A DNA stretch of 32,635 nt from positions 1 through 32,635 of the forward strand of contig JBBILZ010000026.1 in the NCBI GenBank assembly GCA_037444665.1. Direction: 5' to 3'. This document shows positions 1 to 26,622 of this stretch, in pieces. The notes under the pieces were generated by a model. It ran no database searches, was not told the origin of the DNA, and worked only from the letters and a program-made list of their open reading frames with translations. Numbering within the stretch: the first letter of the stretch is position 1; the number at the start of each line of letters is the position of its first letter. The position numbers and the translations under genes are program-made. This DNA comes from a candidate division WOR-3 bacterium (GTDB taxonomy: Bacteria > Hydrothermota > Tepidihabitantia > SM23-42 > JAOAFX01).

Positions 1-2
1 CC

Positions 3-386
3 CCAATTTACTGGAGGTTCCCAGTTTCCAGAAAACCAACCACTACAGCGCATCGCCACTACCTTCGGAACCTGAAAAGTAGTAAAGGAAATATATGGGT
101 TGACACTGGCAAGGGTATTTATCATCAACCAGGGTGGTCCGAACTGGAAATTATAGACATTCTCATCGTGAAACCAGTTGGATAGGTCTCCGGGCGCAGA
201 ATGGACATTTATGGGACCTACCTGATATGCCAAATGGCTAATTAAAATCGCATCTACAGATGAATCGTAAGATATAACATTGCCCATCTGGGTCCAGAGT
301 GCCTTTGCGCAAAATGACGAATCTATCACTATCTGGGCATAACCTGCAGAGATAATAGCGCAAAGGAATAGAATTCTTAACAACAT
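3..386 (-). CDS. Secreted hypothetical protein, N-terminal part (runs off the left edge)
   Basis: Not in the ORF track. ATG at 386 preceded by GGGAGG; translates MLLRILFLCAIISAGYAQIVIDSSF...GNWEPPVNWG with no stop; signal-peptide-like N-terminus (..GYA|Q). Confidence 0.75.
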   Translation of the reverse strand, partial: MLLRILFLCAIISAGYAQIVIDSSFCAKALWTQMGNVISYDSSVDAILISHLAYQVGPINVHSAPGDLSNWFHDENVYNFQFGPPWLMINTLASVNPYISFTTFQVPKVVAMRCSGWFSGNWEPPVNW

Positions 387-440
387 ATTTCGCCTCCCTT
401 CTACCAATAGTGAGTTATTTTTAAAGGGGGTGGACTATAA

Positions 441-653
441 TCAAAATGTCCACTCCTTATAATTTGGAGGACCCTCTACAATAGTTCCATTGATGCAAGT
501 TACCACTGGTATCTCTTGTCCAATGGGTGTCCAACTCTCACCACAATCAGTGGACTTAAAAAGACACCCGCCTGCAACAGCATAAATCGCCTCTCCTGCA
601 TAAAGCAGGGTGGAGCAAGCAAAAATGCTCAAACTTCCTATAATTTTCTTCAT
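441..653 (-). CDS. Small secreted protein with one BNR/Asp-box motif
   Basis: Strong SD (AAAGGAGG) upstream; signal peptide MKKIIGSLSIFACSTLLYA; KSTDCGESW fits the Asp-box S-x-D-x-G-x-x-W. Confidence 0.7.
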   Translation of the reverse strand: MKKIIGSLSIFACSTLLYAGEAIYAVAGGCLFKSTDCGESWTPIGQEIPVVTCINGTIVEGPPNYKEWTF

Positions 654-849
654 TTTAATCCTCCTTTAAGGCAGACGATTCAGGCTGAAAGCCGTTGTGA
701 TAAGGTCTTTGTCCGCCTTATCTCGGACAGCTCAACCACCTGGTGCCTCCCCAGAAGGATTAATTAATAATGAAGAATCGTAAGTAAGGTTAGGTAGCTT
801 ATCCCTATCCGGTTATTTCCGGTCATAAATTACCCTTTATTTATAATAT

Positions 850-877
850 ATTATAACTCAATTTCGTGAAATGTCAA
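850..877 (-). promoter_or_regulatory. Sigma70 promoter TTGACA-N16-TATAAT for the secreted-protein genes
   Basis: Perfect consensus hexamers on the minus strand (tgtcaa 872-877, attata 850-855). Confidence 0.7.
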
Positions 878-1048
878 GGGCCAGCAGCAAACTGAATTCT
901 CTCCACTTTTTTTTGACTCATTGTCTGGCTTTTGCCAGAATAGAATACGTCATAATGGAGTAGCGATTTTAATCGCATGAACCACTGGAAAATTATCTGT
1001 TAAAGAATTTTTGAGAAAGAAGAATGTCTGCCCCTACGAGAAGTAGGC

Positions 1049-2440
1049 TCAGGTGTTTATTATATGGATCGCCTTTTTATAAAAATTTTCTGCTGCCTCG
1101 CCAATGATTTCTGAGAGTGTGGGATGGGGATGTATGATTTCTGCCAGATCGCTGACCTTTAAATTTTTATCAATGGCGAGGGTTGCTTCGCCAATCAAAC
1201 TTGGTGATTCTGCGCCAAGGATGTGTATGCCTAAAATTCTGCCATCCTCTTCGGCAATAATCTTGATAAACCCTTCTGTCTCAAGCATAGATAAAGCCTT
1301 GCCTGAAGCACGATAAGGAAACCTGCCAATCTTTATTTTATAGTCCTGATTTATTGCTTCTTTTTCGGTTAAACCCACAGACGAGAATGGGGGAATGGTG
1401 AAGACGCAGGCAGGAATGCTATGCATTTTTTTTGTATTATTCAAACCAGCAATGATTTCCGCAACCTCAATACCTTGCTTTATAGCCTTGTGTGCTAATA
1501 ATGGCGGACCTGTAATATCGCCGATCGCAAAGATATTTTTTATATTTGTGCGATAAGAATCATCTATGACAATATAGCCTTTTTTGTCAATTTCCAAACC
1601 AAGGTCCTTAAATGCATAATCAGTTGGTCGCCTCCCTACAGTGATAAGAATTCTGTCAAATGTATCACTGATTATGTTATTTTGACATTTGATTTCTACA
1701 TTGATTTTTCCATTTAGAATTTTATGACTGCATACTGTGGAGTTCAATAATATTTCAATGCCCCTTTTCTTAAGTAACTTGAAGAGTTGCTCACACAATT
1801 CAGTCTCCATCCCTGGTAGAATCTGTTCCATTATCTCAACGACCTTGACTTTGCTACCAAGTGATGCATAGATTGTTGCAAGTTCAAGTCCACAGGCACC
1901 AGCACCCACAACAAGAAGATTTTGAGGAATGTCATTCAATTGCAATGCATCATCAGTATTGGTGATAAACTTTCCATCAAATTCAAAACCGGGTAAGGGG
2001 ATGATCTCGGTTCCTGTGGCAATCACAATAGTCTCTGCTTCAATCTGTTCAACCGTGCCATTATCTATCAATTCAATCTTATGCTCAGATAAGATTTTTG
2101 CCCTTGCCTTTTTCCAGATGACATTATTGCTCTTAAAAAGATATTCAATCCCGGTGCGCAGTCTTTTTACCACACCTTCGGTATGATTGCGGAGCACTGA
2201 TAGATCAAATCCTTGATTTTGAATCTTAAAACCGACCTTTTCTGCTTTTTTTAAATTGTCTGACAGTTCAGTGGTAAAGCTCAATGCCTTGGTAGGGATG
2301 CAACCACGATTCAGACAGACACCGCCGAGTTCTTTAGATTCAATGACCAGAACCTTTTTGTTTAATTGTCCGAGCCTGATGGCACAGGGATAACCACCAG
2401 GACCAGCACCGATAATCACAACATCGTATCTGTTATTCAT
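1049..2440 (-). CDS. lpdA: Dihydrolipoyl dehydrogenase (E3)
   Basis: GAGPGG FAD motif, GGVCLNRGCIP redox disulfide, second Rossmann GAGACG, C-terminal HPHPTLSE. Confidence 0.95.
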   Translation of the reverse strand: MNNRYDVVIIGAGPGGYPCAIRLGQLNKKVLVIESKELGGVCLNRGCIPTKALSFTTELSDNLKKAEKVGFKIQNQGFDLSVLRNHTEGVVKRLRTGIEYLFKSNNVIWKKARAKILSEHKIELIDNGTVEQIEAETIVIATGTEIIPLPGFEFDGKFITNTDDALQLNDIPQNLLVVGAGACGLELATIYASLGSKVKVVEIMEQILPGMETELCEQLFKLLKKRGIEILLNSTVCSHKILNGKINVEIKCQNNIISDTFDRILITVGRRPTDYAFKDLGLEIDKKGYIVIDDSYRTNIKNIFAIGDITGPPLLAHKAIKQGIEVAEIIAGLNNTKKMHSIPACVFTIPPFSSVGLTEKEAINQDYKIKIGRFPYRASGKALSMLETEGFIKIIAEEDGRILGIHILGAESPSLIGEATLAIDKNLKVSDLAEIIHPHPTLSEIIGEAAENFYKKAIHIINT

Positions 2441-2449
2441 ATATTTATA

Positions 2450-2478
2450 AGTATATTCAAGTTTTGGAGTATGGTCAA
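2450..2478 (-). promoter_or_regulatory. Sigma70 promoter TTGACC-N17-TATACT for lpdA (near-leaderless)
   Basis: Hexamers at 2473-2478 and 2450-2455; only 9 nt between the -10 and the ATG, no SD. Confidence 0.6.
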
Positions 2479-2565
2479 TAGGTTTGAAATTACAAGTGGA
2501 GAAAATTCAGGTTTGAAGAAGATTCTTTTTGGGTGGATACCATGTCTTGGAACTCTGCATTATTA

Positions 2566-2593
2566 TTGACTTTATTTGTATTTTGAATAGTAT
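2566..2593 (+). promoter_or_regulatory. Putative sigma70 promoter TTGACT-N16-TAGTAT for the cyclase pair
   Basis: Hexamers at 2566-2571 and 2588-2593; SD-like AAAGGTGA before ATG 2668. Confidence 0.5.
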
Positions 2594-2667
2594 TTAAAGA
2601 GATATTTTTTTCCCGTTTCTGAGGTTATATTTATAAGCATGTATTTAGAGAAAGGTGAGATATAAAT

Positions 2668-5600
2668 ATGTTTGAGCATAAAAGATTTGTTACAATTCTT
2701 TACGCTGATATATCAGGATTTACTGACTTGACGAATAAAATTGGTGCAGAGAAGACAACCGATTTTATTAATGAGTGCTTTAATACAATTGATGGAATAA
2801 TACACCGCTATAATGGGAGTGTAATCAGACATGAAGGAGATAGAGTAATGGCAGTATTTGGCTATCCACTTGGTTTTGGCGATGATTCCAGCAATGCTCT
2901 TATGGCAGGTTTAAAAATTAAAGATGAAATTAAAAAGATGAGATATAAAATTGATATTCATATTGGCGTTGGTTCAGGCACAGTTCTGGTTAAAGATAAT
3001 AAGGTTTATGGCCAGCTAATTGATGAAGTTTCACTCCTTGAAGAAAATGCGAAGAGAGATGAAATTGTAGTTAATAACACCTGTTATAATATTAATAAAT
3101 GCTTTTTTAATTTTATTGAAGAAGAAAATGGTTTTCTGCTAATCGGTGCAAAAGCAGGTGAAAAGGGGTCTCCTGTAATTTTTGATACCTACATTGATGA
3201 ATTTACTACATTTAATGACGCTATTTTTAAAACACCCCAGTTTATCTTTGTCTCGGGACAGAAAGGAGCAGGCAAGTCTACCTTTATCAGGTATTCTTTG
3301 ACCAAAATAAATACCAACAACCAACTAAATATATACGAGATAGATTTTATTGCGCAAAACACTACTTATACACCATTTCTCAATGTTGTTTCTAAAATAA
3401 ATCCAGATTTTGATTGTTCCCACAAAGCCAAATTAGAAGGCGAAGACTACCAGTTGAGATTGTTTCGCGAAATGGCTGAGTTATTATTATACTCTTGTAA
3501 AGAAAATCCACTGGTTCTTGTTTTAAGAAACTTTGATATCATTGATGGTGTGTCAACTTTATTTATAAAATATCTTGCAAATGCAATAAAAAATGAAAAA
3601 ATAATATTAATTTTTGAAACCCGCAAAAAAGAAAGTCAGTTGTTTGAAAAAACTTCTGTTATTAAAAATATAAATCTCACGACGATTGAATTAAAGCCGA
3701 TGAGTAACGATATTATTCTCAAGATTATTACCAATATTCTGAATAATTATGAATTTACGGACGATTTTAAGGAAAATATAGTGGCATTATGTAGCGGTAA
3801 TCCATTCTGTGCGGTGGAAGTGGCAAATTTTATAAAAGATTCATATGCTCCCGGGACCAAACTGAAAGAGATTCCGTTTGTCAATCACATTAGACAAATA
3901 ACCCAGGCAATAGTTGATACAATCCCGGAAAAATATCTCTCGGGATTGCTGATTTTGAGCCTCTGGGACGGTGAAATTGACCTTTTGCTATGTCACAAAC
4001 TTATACCGGATACCGAGGCATTTTTGAATTTTTGTCAGGATAAAAATTTGTTATACAATGATGGCAAAAAATTATATTTTAAATCACAATTGATTAAAAG
4101 GACAATTTTTTTATTTCTTTCTCGCAAGATGGCACAGGGTCTCCATTACAAAATAGCGCAGGCAATCAAATCATATAAAAATAGTTCGGAGAACTATGGA
4201 ATTATCGCTTATCATCTCAAGGAAGCAAATGCGCGGGATGAATCACTTGAATATTTAAATCGGTGGGCTGAATATCTGTGGAAAGAACACCAATATGAGA
4301 AATGTCTGACGGTCTTTAACGACATATTGGAATTTATTCCTGATGAACAAATAGAACAAAAGTTAGAATTATTGTTAAAACAGGTGGAATTGTTGAACAT
4401 TTTGGGATACCGAGAACAGGAATTGCAGGAAATTGAGAATACTTTCAAAATTGCCACAGAAAAGCATTGTGAACAATTTTACAGCAGAATAAGTTACGCC
4501 CGGGCGCGCTATCTTGAAGCAACATCTAATTACGATGATGCGCTTAAGATTTATAATGAATTATACAAGACATCGCAGGATATATCACTGCTTGAGAAGA
4601 TCGGGATAAATTATTATTATAAAAATGATTTAAACACAGCAATGGATATATTTAATCAGTTGATGACAATGCTTGATGCTACTGATAATTATCTTTTGCT
4701 GGGCACGGTTTTAAACGACCTCGGTTTGTGTTATTGGAAGAAAGGAGAGAAAGACCGTGCATTGTATTATTACTCAAAGGCAAGGACTAATCTTGAGAGG
4801 GCAAACGATACAGCGGGTATAAGTAGGGTTATCGTAAATGTTGCTAATGTTTACTACTATCTTGGTAAAATAGAGCAGGCCCTGGTTAACTATCAAGAGG
4901 TTTTGAAAATTGCCAATAAAACCAATAATTTAAGTCTCACTGCGCAGGTTCTCTCCAATATGGGTGGCATATATATCCAGCTCGGAGATTACGAAGAGGC
5001 ACTAAAAATTTTTAATGAAGCATTAGAGATTGACCGCAAAACTCTGAATCTTAAGGGCGAGGCGATTAGACTTTCTAATATCGGTTGCATTTATGGTTTA
5101 ATTGGCGATATTAATAAAGCCTTAGAAAATTTTCTTGAAGCCCTGCATCTTGATGAAGAGATGAAAAATCTCTCCGGTATGGCAATCCGCCTTGGGAATA
5201 TCGCAAATTGTTTTGTAGAAAACGGTGACTATGACCAGGCTATTGACTATTTCATCAGGGCGGTTACAATATCTGAGCAGATGAATTTAAAGGATTATCT
5301 TGCTTATTATAATACTTACCTTGGGCTTGCTTATCTCAAGTATGGACAATTAGAAAAAGCACAGATACATCTTCTTCGGGGCAAGGAATTTTCTCTAAAG
5401 GCGAAGACACCTTCCTATGAAATAATCGCCAGTTCAAACCTCAGTCTTTATTATCTTAAAATTGGAGATAATGCCAAGGCATTGGCAAGTTCTGCCTGGG
5501 CAATTGAAAATTTGTTAAATTTATCCAATTTTGAAGGGAATAAAGAGCAACTTTATTTTACTCATTATGAAATCCTGAGACAGATGGGTAAGACATCAGA

Positions 5601-5748
5601 AGCGAATAGATATTTAAAAATGGCTTATGATGAAATTATTAATAAGGCAAGTAAGATTGTCAGTTCTGATTTCCAGAAACAGTTTTTGAATGCTAAAAGA
5701 AACCAGGACATTATTGAATCATGGAAACAGGTAAAGAATCAAGAATAA
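2668..5748 (+). CDS. Class III cyclase + STAND-type P-loop NTPase + TPR protein, subunit A (metal-binding half; degenerate Walker B)
   Basis: YADISGFT and HEGDRVMAVF cyclase motifs, Walker A GQKGAGKST, SGNPF motif, many C-terminal TPRs (e.g. LSNMGGIYIQLGDYEEALKIFNEAL). Confidence 0.88.
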   Translation: MFEHKRFVTILYADISGFTDLTNKIGAEKTTDFINECFNTIDGIIHRYNGSVIRHEGDRVMAVFGYPLGFGDDSSNALMAGLKIKDEIKKMRYKIDIHIGVGSGTVLVKDNKVYGQLIDEVSLLEENAKRDEIVVNNTCYNINKCFFNFIEEENGFLLIGAKAGEKGSPVIFDTYIDEFTTFNDAIFKTPQFIFVSGQKGAGKSTFIRYSLTKINTNNQLNIYEIDFIAQNTTYTPFLNVVSKINPDFDCSHKAKLEGEDYQLRLFREMAELLLYSCKENPLVLVLRNFDIIDGVSTLFIKYLANAIKNEKIILIFETRKKESQLFEKTSVIKNINLTTIELKPMSNDIILKIITNILNNYEFTDDFKENIVALCSGNPFCAVEVANFIKDSYAPGTKLKEIPFVNHIRQITQAIVDTIPEKYLSGLLILSLWDGEIDLLLCHKLIPDTEAFLNFCQDKNLLYNDGKKLYFKSQLIKRTIFLFLSRKMAQGLHYKIAQAIKSYKNSSENYGIIAYHLKEANARDESLEYLNRWAEYLWKEHQYEKCLTVFNDILEFIPDEQIEQKLELLLKQVELLNILGYREQELQEIENTFKIATEKHCEQFYSRISYARARYLEATSNYDDALKIYNELYKTSQDISLLEKIGINYYYKNDLNTAMDIFNQLMTMLDATDNYLLLGTVLNDLGLCYWKKGEKDRALYYYSKARTNLERANDTAGISRVIVNVANVYYYLGKIEQALVNYQEVLKIANKTNNLSLTAQVLSNMGGIYIQLGDYEEALKIFNEALEIDRKTLNLKGEAIRLSNIGCIYGLIGDINKALENFLEALHLDEEMKNLSGMAIRLGNIANCFVENGDYDQAIDYFIRAVTISEQMNLKDYLAYYNTYLGLAYLKYGQLEKAQIHLLRGKEFSLKAKTPSYEIIASSNLSLYYLKIGDNAKALASSAWAIENLLNLSNFEGNKEQLYFTHYEILRQMGKTSEANRYLKMAYDEIINKASKIVSSDFQKQFLNAKRNQDIIESWKQVKNQE

Positions 5749-8700
5749 AACCCTGCGTTATACTTTTTGCTGAGATTACGCAAATTGATACTTGGTTAAG
5801 TGAGATTGATACAGAAGAGTATGCTGAACTTTTGGGTTCAATATTTGAAAAACTTGACAATGCAGTAAATCTGTATGAGGGGCATATTGATAAACATGAA
5901 GGTAGGGTTTTGATGGCGACATTTGGAGTACCGATTGCTCACGAGGAGGATTCAGAGAGGGCTGTTAAAGCCGGACTGCTTATGCTTAATCAGCTTATGA
6001 AACTCAATCAGGAATTAAAAAAGCCCGTTGGTTTACGGATCGGAATAAATTTAGGCAGAGTTTATGCTTCCCATGTTGGTTCAAAAATTAAAACCGAGTT
6101 TACCGTTATGGGAGATGCGGTAAATTTTGCTGCAAGGATTATGGAACATGCTCGTGATTTTGAATTGCTGGTGAGCGATGAAATTTACCAGATTGTCAAA
6201 CCTTTGTTTGAGTTTTCGGAACCGGTGAAGATTTTACCGCAGGGGGCAAAGCAGGAGATTACCGTATACAATGCACTACGTCAGCGCACTGGTTTTGTTA
6301 AACGAAGAGGGATTGAAGGGCTTTCATCACCGCTTGTCGGAAGAAAATTAGAACTTGACCTGCTTTTAAAGTTTATGGAAGAATTATTTTCTGGCAAAGG
6401 AAATGTAGTAATTATTCTGGGTGAAGCAGGAGTAGGAAAATCAAGGTTGCTTGAGGAATTGTTCACCAGGTCTCTGAGCATCGGCTTAGAGCGAGTCAAA
6501 AATATCAACTGGTGTATTAGCAGATGTTCACCCTACAAAGAAACGGGATATTATGCATTTTTGGAGATAATCAAACAAATTTGTGATATACAGATTACAG
6601 ACAGCGAGATGCTGGTGATGTCAAAACTATTAGCGACAATTGAAAAACTTGCAGGAGACCGTGCCGAAGATATTTTTCCGTATATTGCCAATCTTTTTGA
6701 TATAAAACTTGTTGCCAGGTATGAAGAGAAGATAAAATATCTCAAACCCGAAGAGGTAAAACTGCAGACCCAGAGCGCTATTAAAACATTAATGCAGGTC
6801 TATTCAGAAAATGAGCCGACTGTCTACTGTATTGATGATTTGTATCTTGCAGATGATATTACGCTGGAGACATTGAAATTTTTACTTGAATCTAAAAGTT
6901 TGGGTAAATCATTAGTTATTCTTGTGTCCAGACCAGAAAAGGATAAACCTTTCTGGAAGATAAAAGAAAGATTGAAAAATGAATTAACGCTAAAAGAGAT
7001 AATATTAAAACCTCTAACCGAAGGTGAGACAAAAGAATTATCAAAGAATTTACTTAAAATTCCTAAACTTTCTGTTGAGATAATTAATAAAATTGTCCAG
7101 GAGTCTGGTGGGAATCCTTTTTTTCTTGAAGAATTGATCAAACTGTTGATATCAAAGGGCTTTCTTTTCCGCCGTGGTAATGAATGGCTGGCAAGTGATA
7201 GAGAGCTTGAATTTTCAATACCTTATACTATTGAAGGAATAATACAGGCATCATTTGATTCACTGGATGAGAACCTCAGGGGAGTGCTTTCTGAAATTTC
7301 TGTGCTGGGTCGGACATTCAATAAGAAGATATTACAGGCATTTACAAAATACTGGGATAATCTGGATGGCTTTCTGATAAAATTGAATGAGTTGGGTTAT
7401 ATATACTCAAGCAATGACCAGGATTATGCTTTTAGCCATGCCCTTGTGCGAGAGGCAATATATAAAAGTATTCCAGAAAAACAATTAATGAAATTACATC
7501 TTGCAATTGCACAGGCAATTGAATCCTTGTTTCCTGAACGGCTCAGTGAATTTTATGATATTCTTTTTGAGCATTATAATCTGGCAAATGAAAAAGACAA
7601 AGCAGTATTTTACGCATTGAAGGCAGGCGAGAAATGTATTAAACAGTATGCAAATACAGAAGCAATTAGTTATTATCTATATGTGCTTAAAGAATTAAGT
7701 GCGGATTATCCTGATAAAAACCAGGTGGAATTTGAGACCTTGAAAAAATTAGGCGGGATATACCAGACTATTGGAAAAAGTGATGATGCTTTTGAAATTT
7801 ATAATAAGGCATTGCAATTGACACAATCTAAAAAAGAAAAGGCTATAATTTTGAATTTAATTGCTGATACTTATCAGCGTATTAGCGAATATGAAGAGTC
7901 TTTGAACTGGTATAACAAGTCGCTAAATCTTTTAATTGATTTTTCTGAAAAAGACAAAGTTGATACTTATCTCGGTATTGCCTGGATACATTACATCAGA
8001 GGTGATTTAAACATTGCTCGAGAATTACTGGAAAATGTTTCAAATAGCATAAAAGACCTGCCCGGCATTGAATTAAGGGAGAAAATGGCAAGGCTTTACA
8101 ATCAACTTGGTGCAATCTATTCTCACTCTGGTGAATATGAAAAATCTTTTGATGCCTATAATAAGGCATTAAAGTTATATGAGATACTTGAGGATATTCC
8201 TGGACAGGCAGTTATCTTTAACAATATTCATGGACATTATACCCGACTGGGAGATTATTACCGTGCTCTTGAATACTTAAATAAATCACTGGAGATTGAT
8301 TTGAAAACCGGAAATCTTCTTGCGCGGGCGATTGCAACTTATAATATTGGACATACATATTTGCAAATAGGAGACCTGGAAAGGGCAGAGGAAAAATTTA
8401 ATGAGTATCTTGAAATAAATGCAAGAATCAACAATCAGCTGGGCAATGGCTATGGAAATATGGGATTGGGTATTATATATCTGGAGCGTGGAGATTTAAC
8501 GAAGAGTGAAACTTTCTTTAAGAAAGCGTATGAAATCTTTGATAAACTGCAAAGTTTAGCAATGAAGAGAACTGTATCAATGTATCTTGCTGAACTGGAA
8601 TTAGAAAAATCTAACTTTGATGCATCTTTTTCTATGTATGAAGAACTGAAAAAAGAGTTTGAAGAAACCGTTGACCCGGATGATATACTGGATTGTATTA

Positions 8701-9038
8701 TGGGACAGGCAAATGTGAGGATAAAACAAGGAATATATGAAAAACGCCTTGCTATTGCCCATTTTAATGCAGCGTATGAACTTCTTAAACAGGCAGAAGA
8801 ATATATAAATAAGACGATGGTCAACATTGAAACTAAATTTATTATCTATTTTTATCTAACAGAAGTTAATTACTATCTGACAAAGACTGGCGAGGCAATA
8901 GAATATTTTAACAGGGCAGAAAATTTAGTTCAGGTTATGATATCAAAGATACCAGAAGGCGAACCCAGGCAGAAGTTTTTAAATAAAAGAGTTTTCCGCG
9001 AGTATATTGAATTTAAAGATAGAGTGAAATCCCGATAA
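5721..9038 (+). CDS. Class III cyclase + STAND-type NTPase + TPR protein, subunit B (purine/transition-state half)
   Basis: LRIGINLG and FTVMGDAVNFAAR cyclase motifs, LVGR, Walker A GEAGVGKSRL, Walker B CIDDLYLAD, GGNPFFLEE, FSHALVREAIY, TPRs; overlaps the upstream gene by 28 nt. Confidence 0.9.
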   Translation: METGKESRIKPCVILFAEITQIDTWLSEIDTEEYAELLGSIFEKLDNAVNLYEGHIDKHEGRVLMATFGVPIAHEEDSERAVKAGLLMLNQLMKLNQELKKPVGLRIGINLGRVYASHVGSKIKTEFTVMGDAVNFAARIMEHARDFELLVSDEIYQIVKPLFEFSEPVKILPQGAKQEITVYNALRQRTGFVKRRGIEGLSSPLVGRKLELDLLLKFMEELFSGKGNVVIILGEAGVGKSRLLEELFTRSLSIGLERVKNINWCISRCSPYKETGYYAFLEIIKQICDIQITDSEMLVMSKLLATIEKLAGDRAEDIFPYIANLFDIKLVARYEEKIKYLKPEEVKLQTQSAIKTLMQVYSENEPTVYCIDDLYLADDITLETLKFLLESKSLGKSLVILVSRPEKDKPFWKIKERLKNELTLKEIILKPLTEGETKELSKNLLKIPKLSVEIINKIVQESGGNPFFLEELIKLLISKGFLFRRGNEWLASDRELEFSIPYTIEGIIQASFDSLDENLRGVLSEISVLGRTFNKKILQAFTKYWDNLDGFLIKLNELGYIYSSNDQDYAFSHALVREAIYKSIPEKQLMKLHLAIAQAIESLFPERLSEFYDILFEHYNLANEKDKAVFYALKAGEKCIKQYANTEAISYYLYVLKELSADYPDKNQVEFETLKKLGGIYQTIGKSDDAFEIYNKALQLTQSKKEKAIILNLIADTYQRISEYEESLNWYNKSLNLLIDFSEKDKVDTYLGIAWIHYIRGDLNIARELLENVSNSIKDLPGIELREKMARLYNQLGAIYSHSGEYEKSFDAYNKALKLYEILEDIPGQAVIFNNIHGHYTRLGDYYRALEYLNKSLEIDLKTGNLLARAIATYNIGHTYLQIGDLERAEEKFNEYLEINARINNQLGNGYGNMGLGIIYLERGDLTKSETFFKKAYEIFDKLQSLAMKRTVSMYLAELELEKSNFDASFSMYEELKKEFEETVDPDDILDCIMGQANVRIKQGIYEKRLAIAHFNAAYELLKQAEEYINKTMVNIETKFIIYFYLTEVNYYLTKTGEAIEYFNRAENLVQVMISKIPEGEPRQKFLNKRVFREYIEFKDRVKSR

Positions 9039-9073
9039 TACCCTGTGCCGGATAAATAATAATTTAATTTTTA

Positions 9074-10642
9074 TTATCCCATCTCAATTAAATCTTTGAA
9101 AACCTGTAGTTTGCGGAGCCTTACTGGATGGCGTAATTTTCTCAGTGCCTTTGCCTCAATCTGTCTTACCCTTTCCCTTGTGATATTGAACATTCTGCCC
9201 ACTTCTTCAAGGGTCTTCGGTGCACCATTACCCAGTCCAAATCTGAGCCTGATAATTTTTTCTTCCCTTTTAGGAAGGTCTTTTAATATCTCATTGAATC
9301 GGTCCTTTAATATGGATATTGCTGCTGACCTTGATGGTGAGTCTGACATCGGGTCACTTATAAAATCACCAACAAAACTTGACTCTTCATCATCAATGGG
9401 TTTATCAAGCGATATGGGTATGAGTGAAATATTCTGTGCCATTCTTACCTTGTCGGTCGGCAGGTCAAGATGGTCAGCAATCTCTTCAATGGTTGGCTCA
9501 CGGCCCAAATCCTGTGTCATATCGCGCTGTGCTCGTGCTACTTTATTCATTGTATCAAGAATATGAGCGGGCACACGAACTGTCCTTGCCTGGTCACCAA
9601 TTGCGCGGGTAATTGCCTGTCTTATCCACCAGGTTGCATAAGTGGAAAATTTGTAGCCTTTACGATAATCAAATTTTTCTACCGCCTTTATCAGACCATT
9701 ATTTCCTTCACCAACCAGGTCTGCGAATTCAAGCCCTCTATTCACATATTTTTTGGCAATTGATATTACGAGTCGCATATTTCCTTCAATCATTCTTTGC
9801 CGTGAACGATTTATCAAATCTTCCCATTTTTCCACAATCTTTAATGATTCCTTCAATCTTTGAATATCGTTGCCAAGGTCGGCAAGCAATTTCTTACGTT
9901 CCTTTGTAAAGAGCTGGATTTCGTTCTGATTGCGCAACCTCGGTATAGTCTTTTCAATCTTTTCAAGGCGGATAAGATTGTCCTTGAATGACTGAATTGC
10001 ACTGTTTAAAGCACCGTGCTGAAGTGCAAGGATTGATAATTTTCTCAGAACCCTTTCTTCTTTTTCAAATATTTTCCATTCCATTGATTTAGAATGGTCT
10101 TTAGCACCCTTTTTATAAAATTTTACTAATGAATTGTAGTCTTTTTCAACTGATTTTACACGACGGATAAATCTTTGTCTTTCTGCCCAGAAGGTATGTT
10201 TATCCATTATTGCTTCAATTTCCACACGGGAAATCTGGTCAAGACTCTTCTTTCCTAATTCAACCTGTTTACAAACATCAAGGAGGGTATTGATTGCACA
10301 GGGGAAACGTAAGAACTGTCTTTCAATCATTCTGTATCCTGTTTCTATCTTAACCGCAAGTTCATACTCTTCATCTTTGGTGAGCAGGTCATAACGGGCA
10401 AGCTCTCTAAAATACGCTCTAATTGGTTCTTCTGCCTTGACCGTAGTTTTGGTTACTGTTGGTTTTGGAACTTCTTCCTCTTCACTCTGGACAATAACAA
10501 TGCCGTTCCGTGCGAGCATATCCAGAACTTCATCAATCTCTTCTGGTGTGACATTGTCTGGTATTAGATTATTAATGTCATTTATGGTTATCTTTCCTGT
10601 TTCTTTTGCTTTTTCAAAAATTTTCTGAGAATATTTTATCAT
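9074..10642 (-). CDS. rpoD: Primary RNA polymerase sigma70 factor
   Basis: Region 1.1, region 2 ([35 protein letters not shown]), region 4.2 ([20 protein letters not shown]); follows dnaG. Confidence 0.96.
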
Positions 10643-14705: not shown

Positions 14706-15269
14706 ATGATAAAGAACAGGAAAAAGCAGATACTTAAGGTAATTCAGGACTTTATAAGGGATTATGGTTATCCTCCAACTATTCGTGAGATTGCGCAAAT
14801 TGTTGGCTTAAAGAGCACCAAAGGTGTAAAGGTACATATTGATGACCTTGCCCGTGATGGATTAATAACAAAGATTGGGACAAAGGCAAGGGGTATAAAG
14901 GTTGAGCCAAAGAAGATACCTATTGTTGGTAGGGTAGCAGCAGGACTTCCAGAACTTGCTTTTGAAGAGATAGAAGGTTATTTTAATCCCTTGTCCTGGC
15001 AGGACTGTTTTTTATTAAAGGTAAAGGGTGATAGTATGGTAAATTGCCATATATATGAAGGTGACCTTGTGGTGGTGCATCCTGACAAGGTGGCAGATGA
15101 TGGTGATATTATTGTGGCGAATATGGATGGCGAGACGACCATAAAACGTTTGAAAAGGATAAATGGAAAATTTGTTCTCAAACCTGAAAATGATGCCTAT
15201 CCAGTCATAGACGAGTCATTTGAGATAATCGGAAGAGTGGTGGGGGTAATAAGAAAAATAAATGCCTAA
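14706..15269 (+). CDS. lexA: SOS repressor LexA
   Basis: GYPPTIREIA wHTH, cleavage site RVAAG, catalytic Ser (GDSM) and Lys (TIK). Confidence 0.95.
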   Translation: MIKNRKKQILKVIQDFIRDYGYPPTIREIAQIVGLKSTKGVKVHIDDLARDGLITKIGTKARGIKVEPKKIPIVGRVAAGLPELAFEEIEGYFNPLSWQDCFLLKVKGDSMVNCHIYEGDLVVVHPDKVADDGDIIVANMDGETTIKRLKRINGKFVLKPENDAYPVIDESFEIIGRVVGVIRKINA

Positions 15270-15316
15270 AAGTCCAAAATGCCTAAAAAAGGGATTGAAA
15301 CTCGGGATTTAAAGAT

Positions 15317-16471
15317 ATGTTTCTCTGCATTGACCTTGATGCCTTTTTCGTTTCAGTAGAAAGGGTATTGAACCCAGAACTCAAAGGTAAGCCTGTAGTG
15401 GTGGGTGGTCTGCCTGGTGAGCGCGGGGTGGTTGCATCTGCATCTTATGAAGCAAGGAAATCTGGTATAAGGTCCGGAATGCCTGTTGCTCGTGCATATA
15501 GACTTTGCCCTGATGCAATTTTTTTAAGACCCAGTTTCTCAAAGTATGAACTATTTTCAAAAAAGTTTGAGCAGATACTCTATAAATATTCTCCAGAGGT
15601 AGAAATGGTATCTATTGATGAGGCATTTGTTGATATCAGGGGCACAGAACGGTTATTTGGTCCACCCATTGACCTGGGGCAAAAGATTAAAAAAGAGGTC
15701 AATGAAGTATTGAACCTGCCCTGTTCAATAGGTATTGCCCGCACAAAACCGATTGCCAAGATTGCCTGTGATGAATCAAAGCCCGATGGTCTGCTATTTA
15801 TCAACCCTAATAATGAAAAGGATTTTTTATTTCCTTTACCAGTGAATGTTTTACCGGGCATCGGTCCAAAGACCTATGAGATTTTAAAGAATTTGAATAT
15901 CATTACAGTGGCTCAGTTTTTTAATACACCGGATTGGATTTTAGACACTGCCCTGGGTAATAATTGCCGAACAGTTAAATACTTTGTTAAAGGTGGTGAT
16001 TACAAGATTCTCCATAGTGTAAAATCTATGGGCCAGGAAACAACCCTTACACAGGATACAAAAAATTTAGCATTGATAACCAGTGTATTTTATAATCTCA
16101 TTGAATATGTATGCCAGCGATTGCGTGCAAATGGTATGAATACCCATTTGTGCACGATTAAACTTAGATTTTCAGATTTCAAGACTATTAGCCGTAGAGT
16201 AAATTTGCAGGTGGCAACAAATTCTCAACAAAAGGTCTATGAATCCTGTATGCCTGTATTAATGGAGATGTTGAAAGAGAACAAAAGGGTGAGGCTCATT
16301 GGTATATCATTTTCAAAATTTGAATTGAGTGGATTGCAAGCATCAATCTTTTCTAAGGAAGAGAACCGGTTAATTAGATTGAACTATGCACTTGATAGGG
16401 CACGCACAAAATTCGGCTTTTATTCTGTATTTCCGGCAAAGAACTTTATGTTAAGAAATGTTAATCTTTAA
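15317..16471 (+). CDS. dinB: DNA polymerase IV (Y family)
   Basis: IDLDAFFVSVE, SASYEAR, SIDEAF catalytic motifs, little-finger domain, clamp-binding-like QASIF. Confidence 0.93.
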   Translation: MFLCIDLDAFFVSVERVLNPELKGKPVVVGGLPGERGVVASASYEARKSGIRSGMPVARAYRLCPDAIFLRPSFSKYELFSKKFEQILYKYSPEVEMVSIDEAFVDIRGTERLFGPPIDLGQKIKKEVNEVLNLPCSIGIARTKPIAKIACDESKPDGLLFINPNNEKDFLFPLPVNVLPGIGPKTYEILKNLNIITVAQFFNTPDWILDTALGNNCRTVKYFVKGGDYKILHSVKSMGQETTLTQDTKNLALITSVFYNLIEYVCQRLRANGMNTHLCTIKLRFSDFKTISRRVNLQVATNSQQKVYESCMPVLMEMLKENKRVRLIGISFSKFELSGLQASIFSKEENRLIRLNYALDRARTKFGFYSVFPAKNFMLRNVNL

Positions 16472-16472
16472 A

Positions 16473-19247
16473 ATGTATATTCCTTTTTTCTATCACAGCA
16501 ATTATGGTTATGGTGGTTCTGATTTCAAAACCCTTTTTGAAGCCTTGAAAGAGTATAAAATTCCTGCCTGCGGGATTGTTGATGCCACATTCTTTGGACT
16601 CAACGAATTTTTAAATTTTGCAAAGGGATACAGGGTAAAACCAATCATCGGCTCAAGAATTTTTTTATCCGGTCAAGAACAGAGCAGGGAATTCAGTCCC
16701 GTGATTTCCGCATTTATTTACCTCTTTATAAAAAATAAAACAGGTTATACAAATCTGTGCCAGATTCTCACCCAATACGCTTTTAAAAATTTAACTCTGG
16801 AATTCTTAAAAGAACACTCACCTGGACTTGTGCTTGTATCAAATTATGAGAAGATACTTGATGAGTTATCAACTGCATTTTCTGATATCTATTTTTTATT
16901 ATCTCCGCATTCTGTTATCCTTTCCCAAAAAAGGATACCCATTATAGGAGGCAATGATATATTCTATGTCCGACCTGAAGAGCGTATGATTTACCGACTT
17001 TTATCACGGATAAAAAAATTTAAGCCCGAAGATATAGAAAATAGAATCAATTATTTAATCAACCCTGAAAGATTTATCAAACTATATTATCAATACCCTG
17101 AGGCAGTCAGAAATCTTTTTAAATTTGCTGAGATATGTGATTATACCCCTGCACCAGCACAATGGATATTTCCGAAGACAGAAAGGACGCTTATGGAAAT
17201 TATCAAAGCAAAATATCGTAATCTTAACAACGAAGAAAAGAGGCGTCTGGCATTTGAATACAGGATTATCAGGGAGATGGGATTTGAGCCATACTTTGTG
17301 TTGATTTACGAATTAAAAGAGTTTGCAAAGGAAAAGGGTATCGGGATGAATGTGCGCGGCTCAGCTGCTTCATCATTTATTCTATATCTTTTGGGTATCT
17401 CTATTGTTAATCCACTAAAATACAATCTACCGTTTGAGAGATTTTTAAATCAAAAGCGTAGTGAACCGCCAGATATTGATGTGGATGTAGAATATAACCA
17501 GCGCGAACACTTAATCAGTGAAATTTATAAAAAATTTGGTAATGATTATGTTGCCCGAATCAGTATGATAAACCGTTTTCAAACAAGGGCAAGGTTCAGG
17601 CATACAGCGCGTGCATATGGTATTTCAACATTGGAATTGAGAAAACTTAAAGAGCATTCGGGCGAGCAATTGATTAAAGATATAACCAGACTATCAACAA
17701 GGATTGATAATTATCCCTATTATTTTTCCTGCCATCCCAGTGGTATTGTTATCACGCCAGAACCAGTATTTAATTATGTCCCGCTCTATCCCAGCCCACA
17801 GGGTGCTATTACCCACTTTGATAAAGATGGTATTGGTATTACCGGTCTTGTCAAAATTGATATTCTTGGTGTTCGTGGTTTTCCTGAACTCTATCTTAAA
17901 AAAGAAGGCATAGATTTTAATGACCAATCAGTATACAGATTCATTGCTGAGGCAAAGACTATTGGCTGTTTTCAGATTGAGAGTCCGATGGTGAGGCAGA
18001 TTTTAAAAAGAATACGACCGAAAAACCTGATGGACATTGCCAATGCCATAGCCATAATCAGACCAGGACCAGCACAGGGTGGTATGAAGGAAAAATTTTT
18101 AAAACGGCTCAATGGTAAAGAGATTATTGATTGTATCAATCCGGTTCTGGATGAGATTTTAAAAGAAACACTCGGCATCCCTGTGTATCAGGAACAGATT
18201 CTGAGTATGGCAAACCGCTTTGCTGGTTTTTCTCTTGAGGATGCAGACCTTCTGAGGAGGGCAATAACCAAGGAACGGAATTCTGATTTAATAAATAAAA
18301 TCAAAAAAGGATTTTACAAGCAGGCATCAAATTTGGGTTATACTACACAGGAGATTGAAAAGGTCTGGCAGAGAATTTCTGCATTTTCTTCATTCGGTTT
18401 TAATAAGGCACACAGCATCACCTATGCCACCCTTGCCTATCTTTCTGCCTACCAGAAATTGTATAATCCCTTAGAATTTTTCTGTCGCTTGATAAATAAT
18501 CAAGGCGGTTATTATCCGCTCTATGCCTATATCAATGAAGCACGTAGATGGGGTATAAAGATGCTGGGACCGGATTTACATCAGAGTGGATATGGTTTTT
18601 CAATAAAAAATGGTTGTTTGCGCACCGGGTTCAATATGGTCAGAAATCTTTCCCTGCCAACAATAAAAAAAATAATAAAATTAAGGCCCTTCAATTCTGC
18701 AACAGAATTCTTTCTGCAGGTGCGACCGGATGTGGAAGAGGGTGTGAGTCTGATAAAATCCGGAGCACTTGACCTTTTTGGTTTATCCCTACCTGAATTA
18801 TATTTTTTACTATTACAATCATCTTTACACAGACACAGGTATACTCCATTGGCACAACAAAATCTTGTAAAAGAGGAATTTTTCCGAACATATTTTTCTG
18901 ATTTTACACAAAGACAAAAATTACAACAACAATTATCAGTGCTCAATTTTATTCCTGCTCAGCATATCCTTGAATTCTTATATCCAGAAAGGAAGATTCG
19001 GATTGTTGATATGAACCAGAAGCTGAATTCAAATCAATTGATTGGCTTGGTAATATCAAAGAGGACAATTCTTACGCAACACAACAAATTTTTATCTTTT
19101 TTCAGCGTTGATGATGAAACCGGTGTGCTTGATACTGTGTTATTTCCGGGTCAGTATCAGATTGAACCCACATTACCAGTAATCACAATAAAATATCCTT
19201 ATACCAGGCAAATAGATATTACTGATTATCCATTATTTTCTGAATAA
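16473..19247 (+). CDS. dnaE2: DnaE2-like C-family DNA polymerase alpha subunit with degenerate PHP domain (alternative start 16458)
   Basis: RGSAASS, FERFLN, PPDIDVD, HPSG, KIDILG, FQIES, YQEQ, FGFNKAHS; PHP metal ligands largely replaced; directly follows dinB. Confidence 0.85.
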   Translation: MYIPFFYHSNYGYGGSDFKTLFEALKEYKIPACGIVDATFFGLNEFLNFAKGYRVKPIIGSRIFLSGQEQSREFSPVISAFIYLFIKNKTGYTNLCQILTQYAFKNLTLEFLKEHSPGLVLVSNYEKILDELSTAFSDIYFLLSPHSVILSQKRIPIIGGNDIFYVRPEERMIYRLLSRIKKFKPEDIENRINYLINPERFIKLYYQYPEAVRNLFKFAEICDYTPAPAQWIFPKTERTLMEIIKAKYRNLNNEEKRRLAFEYRIIREMGFEPYFVLIYELKEFAKEKGIGMNVRGSAASSFILYLLGISIVNPLKYNLPFERFLNQKRSEPPDIDVDVEYNQREHLISEIYKKFGNDYVARISMINRFQTRARFRHTARAYGISTLELRKLKEHSGEQLIKDITRLSTRIDNYPYYFSCHPSGIVITPEPVFNYVPLYPSPQGAITHFDKDGIGITGLVKIDILGVRGFPELYLKKEGIDFNDQSVYRFIAEAKTIGCFQIESPMVRQILKRIRPKNLMDIANAIAIIRPGPAQGGMKEKFLKRLNGKEIIDCINPVLDEILKETLGIPVYQEQILSMANRFAGFSLEDADLLRRAITKERNSDLINKIKKGFYKQASNLGYTTQEIEKVWQRISAFSSFGFNKAHSITYATLAYLSAYQKLYNPLEFFCRLINNQGGYYPLYAYINEARRWGIKMLGPDLHQSGYGFSIKNGCLRTGFNMVRNLSLPTIKKIIKLRPFNSATEFFLQVRPDVEEGVSLIKSGALDLFGLSLPELYFLLLQSSLHRHRYTPLAQQNLVKEEFFRTYFSDFTQRQKLQQQLSVLNFIPAQHILEFLYPERKIRIVDMNQKLNSNQLIGLVISKRTILTQHNKFLSFFSVDDETGVLDTVLFPGQYQIEPTLPVITIKYPYTRQIDITDYPLFSE

Positions 19248-23580: not shown

Positions 23581-24792
23581 TTATAATAATCTTTTTTCAC
23601 CAGTAATCTTCTGGATTTCAGTAATATCCTGGGTCACTTCAAGGCATCCAAGATATTCACCTTTTTGATTACGGACCGCGAAATATCTTATATAGATTAA
23701 TTTCCCACCCATATTAATCCAGAATTCAGCAACATTTCTCTTGTTGTTGCGAAAATCATCAAGGATTTGATTTACTACATGAACGCTCTTTTGCGGGTGA
23801 CATTGCTGAACTTTGCGACCTATTACTGCCTTTGTGCGTGGGAAGACCCTTTCTTTTGTCTGGCTGAAATAGGCGACTGTATCATTGCGGTCAACAAAAG
23901 TTATATCAACGGGAAGTGAATTTAATGAGTTTTCAAGTTCTTCAATGGTAAAACTTCCAGTATCAAACTGAACACTATTTTCAGAAAGCACCGCAGATTT
24001 TTCCGGCTCTTTTTCTATTTTTTCTTTTTCAATCTCGGGAGTGAAACAGCAGTATCCAATCTCATCAAATTCTTTTTTAATTTCTTGCCATTCACCTACA
24101 CCTATTACATTCATTGCAGTTGGAAACAGGATATTATTTTCTTTATAAAAATGGCTTGCCAGTATCTCATTTATACTTACCCCGGTACCATCTATCTTTT
24201 GAACAAAATCAGAAAAAGTATGTTCTTCTTTTTTTTCAAGAATATTATAAAAATTTTTCTTTAATTCACGAATTTTGTTATGTTCTGACCACATAATTGC
24301 TGGTGGCTGGGTAATGCCATGTTTTTCAAGATAGGGGAAAAGGACATTCTCTTCTCTTAAATAGTGTTTTTCTGAATCTTTAAAATGCTGGGCAATATGT
24401 TCTAAAAAATCTATTTGCTCTTTTGCTTTTTCCCAGCCTTGCTTATTCTTCAATATAGCCACTGTATTTTTTATTTCATTTGCATATGAAAGGAGAATTT
24501 TATGTTCTTCCATAAGGATATTGATTGGATGACCAGGTGGTGCAATTGTTTTTTCTTTTTCCAGAGATTCTTTGAACATTGCAATATGGACATCGCAGAG
24601 TTTATGGATTTCTTCTACAGGCATCCCCTCTTTTATAAGTTCTTCCTCAATTCGCGCAATTTCTTCGGGACCGGCACCCTGTATGATGTTAGCAAATTTT
24701 GATTTAATATCGTTAAGGTTAGTACCACTATGCAATTTTCTTATCAACTCTTTTAATTGTTCCTTTTTGTTCTTTCCAAATACTTCACTCAT
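23581..24792 (-). CDS. DUF438 + hemerythrin-like + PAS domain protein
   Basis: EIARIEEELI..LCDVH (DUF438), GHPINILMEEH, HYLREENVLFPYLE, MWSEH, KENNILFP, PAS region LPVDITFVD..IGRKVQQCHP..LEVTQDI. Confidence 0.9.
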   Translation of the reverse strand: MSEVFGKNKKEQLKELIRKLHSGTNLNDIKSKFANIIQGAGPEEIARIEEELIKEGMPVEEIHKLCDVHIAMFKESLEKEKTIAPPGHPINILMEEHKILLSYANEIKNTVAILKNKQGWEKAKEQIDFLEHIAQHFKDSEKHYLREENVLFPYLEKHGITQPPAIMWSEHNKIRELKKNFYNILEKKEEHTFSDFVQKIDGTGVSINEILASHFYKENNILFPTAMNVIGVGEWQEIKKEFDEIGYCCFTPEIEKEKIEKEPEKSAVLSENSVQFDTGSFTIEELENSLNSLPVDITFVDRNDTVAYFSQTKERVFPRTKAVIGRKVQQCHPQKSVHVVNQILDDFRNNKRNVAEFWINMGGKLIYIRYFAVRNQKGEYLGCLEVTQDITEIQKITGEKRLL

Positions 24793-24807
24793 TGGAACTC
24801 CTTTCTT

Positions 24808-25068
24808 TTAAATTGTTACTACCTTATCAAATTCCATAATCAGGTCAACCAACCTGAAATAATCAACAGAATTTGAATCTATTTTTATTCCCCTTGCTTC
24901 TGCATCTGGCTCCATTACATAATTTTGACATACCAATTCAATATTATGTTTAGCAATATAAATGCCATTTTGAATAAAAACAACGCAGTCTGAGATATCA
25001 ATCAATCTTTTTAAAAATCTGATATTTTCCTGATTGGGTGTTTGACTGAAAAGGAAGAGAGTTCTCAT
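24808..25068 (-). CDS. DsrH/TusB family sulfur-relay protein
   Basis: FIQNGIY, DAEARGI, VDYFRLVDLI; third gene of a dsrEFH-like triad. Confidence 0.85.
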   Translation of the reverse strand: MRTLFLFSQTPNQENIRFLKRLIDISDCVVFIQNGIYIAKHNIELVCQNYVMEPDAEARGIKIDSNSVDYFRLVDLIMEFDKVVTI

Positions 25069-25070
25069 AT

Positions 25071-25421
25071 CTAAAAAGTTAATACTACATCTGCATTATT
25101 TATCATTTTTTTCAATTCTTCATATGAGATAATATTTGCTTTTACGAGTTCCTCAAAGTCCAGATTTCTCATTTGAATTGAGTCTTCTACAAGAAATAGA
25201 TTGATGTTATAATCAGTGATATTATTATAAACTTCGGAAATCGGTTTCATTTGAAGTTTTGCCGGAGATTGTCCTTTTATTGCCCCATAAACACCATCAC
25301 CGATAAGAATTAAGTCAACCTGGGTTTCAGAAAATGCAAGGCCGAGCCCGGCACGGAATGCCTCAGCACTTATACTGGAGCCATAGGGTGGCTTTGTGCT
25401 TAAGATAACAACTTTTTTCAT
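25071..25421 (-). CDS. DsrF/TusC family sulfur-relay protein
   Basis: KPPYGS, LIGDGVY, DSIQMRNL, C-terminal ADVVLTF. Confidence 0.85.
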   Translation of the reverse strand: MKKVVILSTKPPYGSSISAEAFRAGLGLAFSETQVDLILIGDGVYGAIKGQSPAKLQMKPISEVYNNITDYNINLFLVEDSIQMRNLDFEELVKANIISYEELKKMINNADVVLTF

Positions 25422-25789
25422 TCGCCCAATCCTAAGGTTATGAATCTATCACACTCTTCAATGATTTCGGCAAGGGTCGCAATGCCAGTCAATCTGGTGC
25501 CTTCAACCAATAGGTCACGCGTTAATCCGCGAAAATGGGCACAGTCACCACAGGCAACAATTCGTGCTCCTTCATCAGCCAGTTCTTTAAACATAGATGG
25601 AATATGCCTTTCACCAGGAGATTTGATATTTTTATTAAGGGCAACAACTGCATCAAGGTATAAAAAGATACTGACACCATAACCTTTTTTCAAAGCTGCC
25701 TTACTTAAATGATACGCAGTATCCAGATGTTCAAAAGTATATGGCCCAGCAGTTATTAAAAATCCGATTTTCTTTTTTTGAGCTTCCAT
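25418..25789 (-). CDS. DsrE/TusD family sulfur-relay protein
   Basis: AGPYT, IFLYLDAV, active-site ACGDCAHFRG, CDRFITL. Confidence 0.88.
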   Translation of the reverse strand: MEAQKKKIGFLITAGPYTFEHLDTAYHLSKAALKKGYGVSIFLYLDAVVALNKNIKSPGERHIPSMFKELADEGARIVACGDCAHFRGLTRDLLVEGTRLTGIATLAEIIEECDRFITLGLGE

Positions 25790-25797
25790 ATAAAATT

Positions 25798-26280
25798 TTA
25801 TATAAAGAGTGTAATCTGTGCCTTTGAGGCATGCTCAAGATAAGTGGCAACTCCCACAACATCTTTTATATTATCAATCAATTCTTCTCTTTTTAAGCCC
25901 ATTACATTCATTGACATTTCGCAGGCATAAAGATTCACACCGAGTTGATTCGCAATATCAATCAATTCAGGTAATGAGGCGACCTTCTTCTTTTTCATCA
26001 CATCCTTCATCATATTTGTGCCGATGCCCATCATATGCATTTTTGATAAAGCGAGTTTGTCAGCACCTCTGGGTAACATCATACCGAACATTTTTTCTAT
26101 AAATGATTTCCCTTTTACCTTCACACCGTCTTTTCGCAAAGCACTCAGACCCCAAAATGTGAAGAACATATCAACCCGCATCCCTGAAGCAGCACCTGTC
26201 GTCCCGATTATGAAGGCAGCAAGGCACTTATCAAGGTCGCCACTAAAGACAATTATGGAAACTCTTTCTTGTTCTGCCAT
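25798..26280 (-). CDS. DsrE2 (DsrE/DsrF/DrsH-like) family protein
   Basis: SIIVFSGDLDK, MFFTFWGL, LYACEMSM, GVATYL. Confidence 0.9.
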   Translation of the reverse strand: MAEQERVSIIVFSGDLDKCLAAFIIGTTGAASGMRVDMFFTFWGLSALRKDGVKVKGKSFIEKMFGMMLPRGADKLALSKMHMMGIGTNMMKDVMKKKKVASLPELIDIANQLGVNLYACEMSMNVMGLKREELIDNIKDVVGVATYLEHASKAQITLFI

Positions 26281-26289
26281 TGTTACTCC

Positions 26290-26520: not shown

Positions 26521-26536
26521 AGAATCACCTCGGTTT

Positions 26537-26564: not shown

Positions 26565-26622
26565 TATCTATTAAAACCACCAAATTTCTTTAATATCCTA
26601 TGTTCTCGCAACTCATTTTTTG

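Follow-up and report, generated by a model that had tools for sequence, protein, structure and literature searches.

Two overlapping genes of a candidate division WOR-3 bacterium probably encode the complementary halves of a class III adenylyl cyclase

Can two proteins that each lack a different part of the catalytic machinery of a class III nucleotidyl cyclase make up one enzyme between them? The question is raised by a pair of overlapping genes, here called A (positions 2668–5748) and B (positions 5721–9038), on the plus strand of a 32,635-nucleotide stretch of DNA (contig JBBILZ010000026.1 of assembly GCA_037444665.1, positions 1 to 32,635; hereafter the window) from a candidate division WOR-3 bacterium. 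The two open reading frames (ORFs) specify proteins of 1026 and 1105 amino acids, respectively, in which Pfam recognizes the same order of domains, namely a class III cyclase domain, a P-loop STAND nucleoside triphosphatase (NTPase), and a long TPR array. The proteins are collinear paralogues with 23% identity over their full length; A resembles the C1 and B the C2 subunit type of animal cyclases. An initial annotation, made from the letters of the DNA, had proposed that A and B work only as a heterodimer, which would have one composite active site and one pseudo-site. Our comparison of orthologous pairs, the invariance of the two half-sites, a structural model of the A:B dimer, and a reassessment of residue His98 of A all speak for that proposal, and we consider it probable that A and B together constitute an obligate heterodimeric class III adenylyl cyclase whose single composite site makes cyclic AMP (cAMP).

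Both proteins score well above the Pfam Guanylate_cyc (PF00211) cut-off of 21.9 bits, A with 51.5 bits (cyclase homology domain at amino acids 6–151, positions 2683–3120) and B with 71.8 bits (amino acids 8–183, positions 5742–6269), and their sequence matches in the PDB include CyaB, CyaC, and ADCY10. Residues were assigned from alignments with CyaB (3r5g), Cya (2w01), and CyaC (1wc0), and with three canonical paralogues that the genome also encodes, and these alignments agree with the initial annotation for both proteins. Specifically, A keeps the two metal-binding aspartates, D14 and D58, has R54, K112, D119, and L123 at the positions of the catalytic Lys, Thr, Asn, and Arg, and carries a deletion of eight residues in its arm relative to solved and canonical cyclases; B keeps K58, T128, N135, and R139, and has E18 and R62 in place of the metal-binding aspartates. 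Neither chain contains the full set of both metal-binding aspartates plus Lys, Asp or Thr, Asn, and Arg, which is complete only across A and B. The adenine-type character that had been ascribed to the Lys/Thr pair also holds up, in that K58 and T128 of B align with the corresponding Lys and Thr of CyaB and CyaC. Class IIIb enzymes are reportedly defined, in the scheme of Linder and Schultz, by a Lys that precedes the second metal position by four residues and by a Thr in an xTxxG motif that precedes VN...R.

Two further features of the catalytic domains had been remarked upon at the outset. The first is the motif H-E-G immediately before the second metal position, which is present in both A and B and is rare, with 11 cases among 216 domains. 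Apart from the A-type sequences it is found in four relatives whose other five catalytic residues are canonical (the Lys position being Arg in one and His in another), and three of these four are placed near the B clade in the tree described below. The second feature is His98 of A, which had been entered as a caveat on the grounds that an Arg usually contacts phosphate there. A His does sit at the phosphate-Arg position, and it is no weakness: among the canonical-pattern domains in the best 150 relatives, this position is occupied by His in 62 of 82 cases and by Arg in only 10 of 82. His98 is the norm of the subfamily and no defect.

To what extent the division of residues between A and B is maintained was followed in 41 genomes of the same order, the source genome included, with thresholds of E ≤ 1e-47 for A-type domains (41–96% identity) and E ≤ 1e-59 for B-type domains. 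A-type domains are present in 15 of the 41 genomes, B-type domains in 14, and both in 13. In every one of the 15 A-type sequences the two metal-binding aspartates, the Arg at the Lys position, and the His are invariant and the Asn position holds Asp or Glu, never Asn; the Thr position (K, D, E, N or Y) and the Arg position (L, H, Q, R, Y or M) are variable. The 14 B-type sequences without exception keep Lys, Thr, Asn, and Arg, and an Asp is found at neither of their metal positions, the first being Glu in 12, Gln in one, and Lys in one, and the second Arg in five and Lys in nine. This complementary pattern holds down to roughly 41–51% identity and is beyond chance, given that none of the 15 A-type and 14 B-type sequences departs from it. 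Taken residue by residue, exactly the six residues required for one composite site have been frozen, while the Thr and Arg positions in the dead half of A drift. At the remaining positions of the dead halves the substitutes are conserved in turn, and these carry reciprocal charges (A-R54 in 15/15, A-D/E119 in 15/15, B-E18 in 12/14, and B-K/R62 in 14/14). As read from the sequences, the charges probably favour the mixed dimer over either homodimer, or else form a regulatory pocket.

Selection and phylogeny bear on whether both halves matter. Ratios of nonsynonymous to synonymous substitution rates (dN/dS), taken from unsaturated sequence pairs only, are 0.01–0.11 for the cyclase domain of A, 0.10–0.23 for its NTPase, and 0.07–0.26 for its TPR region; the three modules of B give 0.04–0.15. 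In a tree built on the cyclase and NTPase region, A and B form separate clades (SH-aLRT 99 and 100) with matching internal topology, the branches of A being two to three times longer than those of B, and B nests among the canonical members. We considered the possibility that the pair is not catalytic at all and that both cyclase domains are pseudoenzyme modules, providing a platform for dimerisation or nucleotide binding within a STAND/TPR signalling complex. Each domain alone does lack essential residues, the arm of A is shortened and its NTPase degenerate, and the residues of the pseudo-site are conserved in their own right, all of which would suit such a role. Nevertheless, six composite-site residues that stay invariant over 41–51% identity, next to Thr and Arg positions in the dead half that vary, would be unexpected without catalysis, and the low dN/dS of the A cyclase domain argues in the same direction, so that we regard a purely non-catalytic pair as unlikely.

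The same data speak to the notion that B by itself is the enzyme, working as a homodimer in which Glu18 serves as a metal ligand, with A a dispensable, diverged duplicate. B has the higher cyclase and NTPase scores and evolves two to three times more slowly than A, as this notion would have it. The second metal position of B is, however, Arg or Lys in 14/14 sequences and the first is Gln or Lys in 2/14, which is incompatible with the established two-metal catalysis of class III enzymes, and the strong purifying selection on A, together with the absence of any case in which A alone was lost, speaks against its being dispensable. An active B homodimer is in our estimation very improbable.

The arrangement of the two genes is as constant as their residues. 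The stop of A and the start of B overlap by 28 nt (positions 5721–5748, plus strand), as first annotated, and at 12 of 14 loci in the relatives B comes directly after A and overlaps it by exactly this length, making 13 of 13 intact pairs when the window is counted. The initial annotation had asked whether orthologues, too, come in pairs that show these complementary losses, and they do, in 13/13 intact pairs for the linkage and in 15/15 A-type and 14/14 B-type sequences for the residues. At one locus (genome G022) the contig ends inside A. In another genome (G033) a single deletion has joined A at about residue 219 to B at about residue 1046, leaving a chimeric ORF of 262 amino acids whose last ~57 residues derive from B (locus L060, contig C2, positions 7776–8561); no B-type domain was found elsewhere in this genome, and the single junction indicates that A and B were lost together. 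A third genome (G025; locus L046, contig C30, positions 1–5540) carries an extra B-type copy 95 nt downstream of its A and B genes, making a triplet, and in this copy the first metal position is Lys. With regard to expression signals, a good Shine-Dalgarno motif lies upstream of A, and an AGGA Shine-Dalgarno-like motif lies within A at positions 5705–5708, 12 nt 5′ of the ATG of B. Translational coupling of this kind would hold the two subunits equimolar. We also entertained a programmed −1 frameshift that fuses A to B, because the length of the overlap is invariant, and discarded it, as no slippery heptamer is visible in the overlap. A scan of positions 2300–9300, which carries little information in DNA as AT-rich as this, returned 46 promoter-like sequences where 28.6 were expected and 3 terminator-like sequences where 4.2 were expected.

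A search of 1.84 billion representative proteins with a profile of the A-type domain recovered only seven A-type clusters (208–283 bits), with two-domain and canonical proteins scoring below them. Across the phylum (272 genomes), 19 genomes carry A-type matches at E ≤ 1e-73, and these genomes belong to just two families within a single order.

We modelled residues 1–175 of A with residues 1–200 of B, using our own alignments and including ATP and two Mg ions, in three runs alongside three controls. The catalytic domains of A and B gave an ipSAE of 0.83 in each run, the best control scoring 0.01, with a between-run contact agreement of at least 94% and a partner pLDDT of at least 86; for comparison, a mark of 0.83 is reached by 116 of 157 solved complexes and by 2 of 215 mismatched pairs. 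The predicted interface includes residues 58, 128, and 134–135 of B and residues 54–57, 114–119, and 122 of A. Of the models called for in the initial annotation, that of A:B passed its controls, and since cyclase dimers are abundant among solved structures we read the score as a likeness to the known cyclase dimer and not as proof that these particular copies bind.

These observations suggest the following mechanism. The catalytic domains of A and B would pair head-to-tail, as in all class III enzymes, with A contributing to the composite site both metal-binding aspartates (D14 and D58) and the family-typical His98, and B contributing Lys58 and Thr128 for adenine specificity and Asn135 and Arg139 for the transition state. 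The site on the opposite side of the interface would be a non-catalytic pseudo-site marked by the conserved charge pattern. On this proposal the two proteins would bind one another and be active together, and the STAND and TPR tails presumably govern when the catalytic domains meet.

The tails of the two proteins appear to be unequal partners in such a switch. The NTPase of B (positions 6330–6920) scores 63.1 bits against AAA_16, for which the cut-off is 32.6 bits, and has the Walker A motif GEAGVGKS, the Walker B motif IDD, and the sensor motif SRP; GEAGVGKS and IDD are kept in 13/13 B-type sequences and in a lone B-like protein considered below. The NTPase core of A (positions 3229–3804) reaches 28.4 bits against AAA_16, below the cut-off, and also matches ATPase_2. 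It retains a P-loop (Walker A, GQKGAGKS), but R-N stands where the acidic Walker B pair would be, and there is no sensor Arg. The same holds for all 12 orthologues of A examined, which have RN, KN, QY or QS at the Walker B pair in place of DD and no longer show the sensor Arg motif; the canonical relatives keep both, as B does. A is thus, on motif evidence, probably a subunit that binds nucleotide and does not hydrolyse it, and the loss of Walker B would make the partners asymmetric in the switch module as well as in the cyclase domain: B would be an intact STAND switch and A a partly degenerate partner that kept the P-loop and lost the hydrolysis motif. Each protein ends in a TPR array (positions 4423–5610 in A, with TPR_12 at 152.7 bits, and positions 7677–8858 in B, with TPR_12 at 133.5 bits, each also matched by TPR_MalT and other models). 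The initial annotation had pictured the pair as a coincidence detector with two TPR sensors; this needs to be amended, since an A subunit without the acidic Walker B pair makes the two sensor arms non-equivalent. The Walker B loss in A, the status of His98 as the norm, and the charge pattern of the pseudo-site are additions to that annotation, as are the second split pair and the fused form described below.

Several observations weigh against an obligate A:B enzyme, or against parts of it. The assignment of cAMP as the product derives from the Lys/Thr pair alone, and an Arg at the Lys position, as in A, also occurs in an otherwise canonical relative (P0049). The A:B model may owe its score to memory of solved cyclase dimers, and its inputs (our own alignments and the ligands) differ from the set-up used for calibration. 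In one genome (G011) A is broken into two ORFs. Another (G017; locus L059, contig C56, positions 2002–5361) encodes a lone B-like protein of 1119 amino acids, with a cyclase domain 47% identical to that of B and no adjacent A. This protein keeps Thr, Asn, and Arg, has Gln in place of Lys, and has lost both metal positions; the upstream neighbour of its gene is a transketolase gene, and no A-type gene was found within the 8.2 kb of the locus. The tree does not place A and B as sisters, and A sits on a long branch. An origin of the pair by tandem duplication was accordingly set aside, as the tree does not join A and B. Even so, because the HEG motif is rare and is present in A, in B, and in relatives near the B clade, the sequences hint that both may descend from one HEG-bearing homodimeric ancestor. 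Finally, the source genome (2.54 Mb in 120 contigs) contains 13 cyclase-domain matches, which could allow cross-pairing with other paralogues.

The last of these points raises the possibility that A and B are not specific to each other but serve as modulators, each pairing promiscuously with canonical cyclase-STAND-TPR paralogues of the genome and either forming one-site hybrids or acting as a dominant negative. Several of the 13 cyclase-domain matches are indeed canonical proteins of the same architecture, and genome G017 retains a B-like gene without an A. What such promiscuity does not sit well with is the strict adjacency of the genes, the exact 28-nt overlap in all 13 pairs, the congruent trees, and the joint deletion; the rare HEG motif shared by A and B and the complementary, conserved charges of the pseudo-site likewise suit a dedicated pair. 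We judge promiscuous modulation to be quite unlikely and continue to favour the dedicated A:B heterodimer.

The genome of this bacterium holds other cyclases with split catalytic residues. A second complementary pair is located on contig C9 (positions 24238–28058; locus L061, positions 1739–5559). Its first gene encodes a 1059-amino-acid zinc-ribbon protein with a C2-like cyclase domain, in which the first metal Asp is Asn and the Thr, Asn, and Arg are kept, followed by a STAND NTPase and TPRs. Its second gene begins 2 nt past the stop codon of the first and encodes a 212-amino-acid zinc-ribbon protein with a C1-like cyclase domain, in which both aspartates are kept and the Lys, Thr, Asn, and Arg are lost. 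Located 3′ of this pair is an ORF of at least 646 amino acids with a weak HEAT/ARM-type match. ORFs of about 215 amino acids that match the cyclase domain of A recur in the relatives. On contig C1 (positions 48590–51331; locus L062) a single frame of 913 amino acids contains tandem cyclase domains, the first C1-like and the second C2-like, and this frame is, judged by its domains, a fused form of the soluble adenylyl cyclase type that stands beside two split pairs in one genome.

The surroundings of the A/B pair are made up of housekeeping genes that differ between genera, and they bear on a further explanation, according to which the pair is an anti-phage defence module of the Pycsar or Avs kind, with a STAND sensor and a cyclase effector that makes a non-canonical cyclic nucleotide. 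A STAND NTPase joined to TPRs is a common layout of defence sensors, and PADLOC returned weak PycC matches, the best at 57.6 bits. Those PycC matches reflect the shared fold only; apart from them and weak TPR matches the PADLOC search turned up nothing that would identify a Pycsar or STAND defence system, with no match to an Avs or other STAND defence model. Moreover, no conserved effector gene adjoins the pair among its housekeeping neighbours, its inheritance is vertical and congruent, and the Lys/Thr residues are of the adenine type. A role in phage defence has very little in its favour relative to cAMP synthesis by the A:B heterodimer.

Elsewhere in the window, genes for LexA (positions 14706–15269), an ImpB/MucB-type Y-family polymerase (positions 15317–16471), and a DnaE2-like Pol III alpha subunit (positions 16458–19247) lie in a row (positions 14706–19247) that looks like an SOS mutagenesis cassette. 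At positions 23581–24792 a DUF438-hemerythrin-PAS_10 protein gene adjoins one for a cysteine desulfurase-type aminotransferase, with DsrE-like genes nearby. Homologues of an AbiEii-type nucleotidyltransferase toxin (positions 28798–29475) and of a 23S rRNA-intervening-sequence protein (positions 30684–31076) are both situated among three acyl-CoA dehydrogenase genes.

How does the A/B pair relate to known cyclases? Full-length ADCY10, the mammalian soluble adenylyl cyclase, consists of C1 and C2 domains followed by a STAND-like NTPase and TPRs, and has the same building blocks and division of labour as A and B. An A profile aligns with the C1 half of ADCY10 (residues 43–213) and B with the C2 half (residues 287–422); the stretch YGQLIDEV of A aligns with IGQAVDDV of C1, and A-R54 is aligned with the Lys of C1 that precedes the second metal Asp by four residues. 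ADCY10 is nonetheless less similar in sequence than CyaB (3r5g) to both A and B, and in A and B the halves are divided between two polypeptides, both of which have a STAND-TPR tail. With one cyclase domain per protein, neither A nor B has the two complementary domains in one chain that mark the soluble-cyclase type. The bicarbonate pocket of soluble adenylyl cyclase has two basic residues. We looked for a similar pocket in A and B and abandoned the idea, as only one of the two aligns; the C1 Arg in DDVRLAQ is matched by Ser122 of A, and a bicarbonate-type pocket is not evident.

In the C1/C2 pseudo-heterodimer of mammalian membrane adenylyl cyclases (1azs, 1cjk) and in the alpha/beta soluble guanylyl cyclase, the pair of metal-binding aspartates comes from one domain and the Lys, Asp or Thr, Asn, and Arg from the other. 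This gives one composite site and one degenerate pseudo-site, which is the arrangement we propose for A and B. Soluble guanylyl cyclase is alike also in that a separate gene encodes each half and each half has a sensor region of its own. The membrane and guanylyl cyclases differ in having membrane anchors and G-protein control, or H-NOX and PAS domains, where A and B use STAND-TPR tails, and the A/B genes are bacterial, overlapping, and translationally coupled. The canonical bacterial cyclase-STAND-TPR/HTH (helix-turn-helix) proteins, which are present as paralogues in this genome and of which we take Rv0386 of Mycobacterium tuberculosis to be an example, have the same order of domains as A and B; in these the six residues lie in one chain (DKD-TNR pattern) and the proteins are taken to be homodimers, whereas in A and B complementation is natural, fixed, and conserved. 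An engineered precedent is said to exist in the work of Guo et al. from 2001, in which the mixing of complementary mutants of Rv1625c reportedly showed the same complementation logic.

Textbooks present bacterial class III cyclases differently, as symmetric homodimers with two active sites, and regard the one-site C1/C2 design as having arisen in eukaryotes. A 2022 review draws a similar picture: bacterial class III monomers are described there as forming two productive centres in symmetric homodimers, a fused dimeric form is said to be unknown in bacteria, and the C1/C2 design with one site is treated as a eukaryotic innovation (PMC9552081). Full-text searches, the coverage of which leaves out most subscription journals, turned up no account of a natural bacterial class III cyclase encoded by two complementary genes.

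Taken further, the observations would be compatible with a logic gate in which the catalytic half-sites are split between partners, a live STAND module in B is set against a hydrolysis-dead, nucleotide-binding one in A, and the charges of the pseudo-site enforce the heterodimer and maybe create a pocket for an allosteric ligand, comparable to the forskolin and bicarbonate sites of animal enzymes. On this extended proposal, which we put forward tentatively and hold to be doubtful as a whole, the lineage would have kept the stages from homodimer to split pair to fused chain, and the C1/C2 design would be bacterial and not eukaryotic in origin. If it were true, the long-plus-long, long-plus-short, and fused versions found in one genome would be preserved stages on the way to a C1–C2 enzyme of the soluble adenylyl cyclase type.

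For the family as a whole, a conserved, translationally coupled pair with fixed complementary half-sites would mean that the one-site design has evolved in bacteria, and it would have done so within the cyclase-STAND-TPR family that includes human soluble adenylyl cyclase. As two soluble and separable proteins, A and B may offer a simple system in which to study how STAND and TPR modules control cyclase pairing, a question that arises also for the C-terminal region of soluble adenylyl cyclase, and what purpose a pseudo-site serves.

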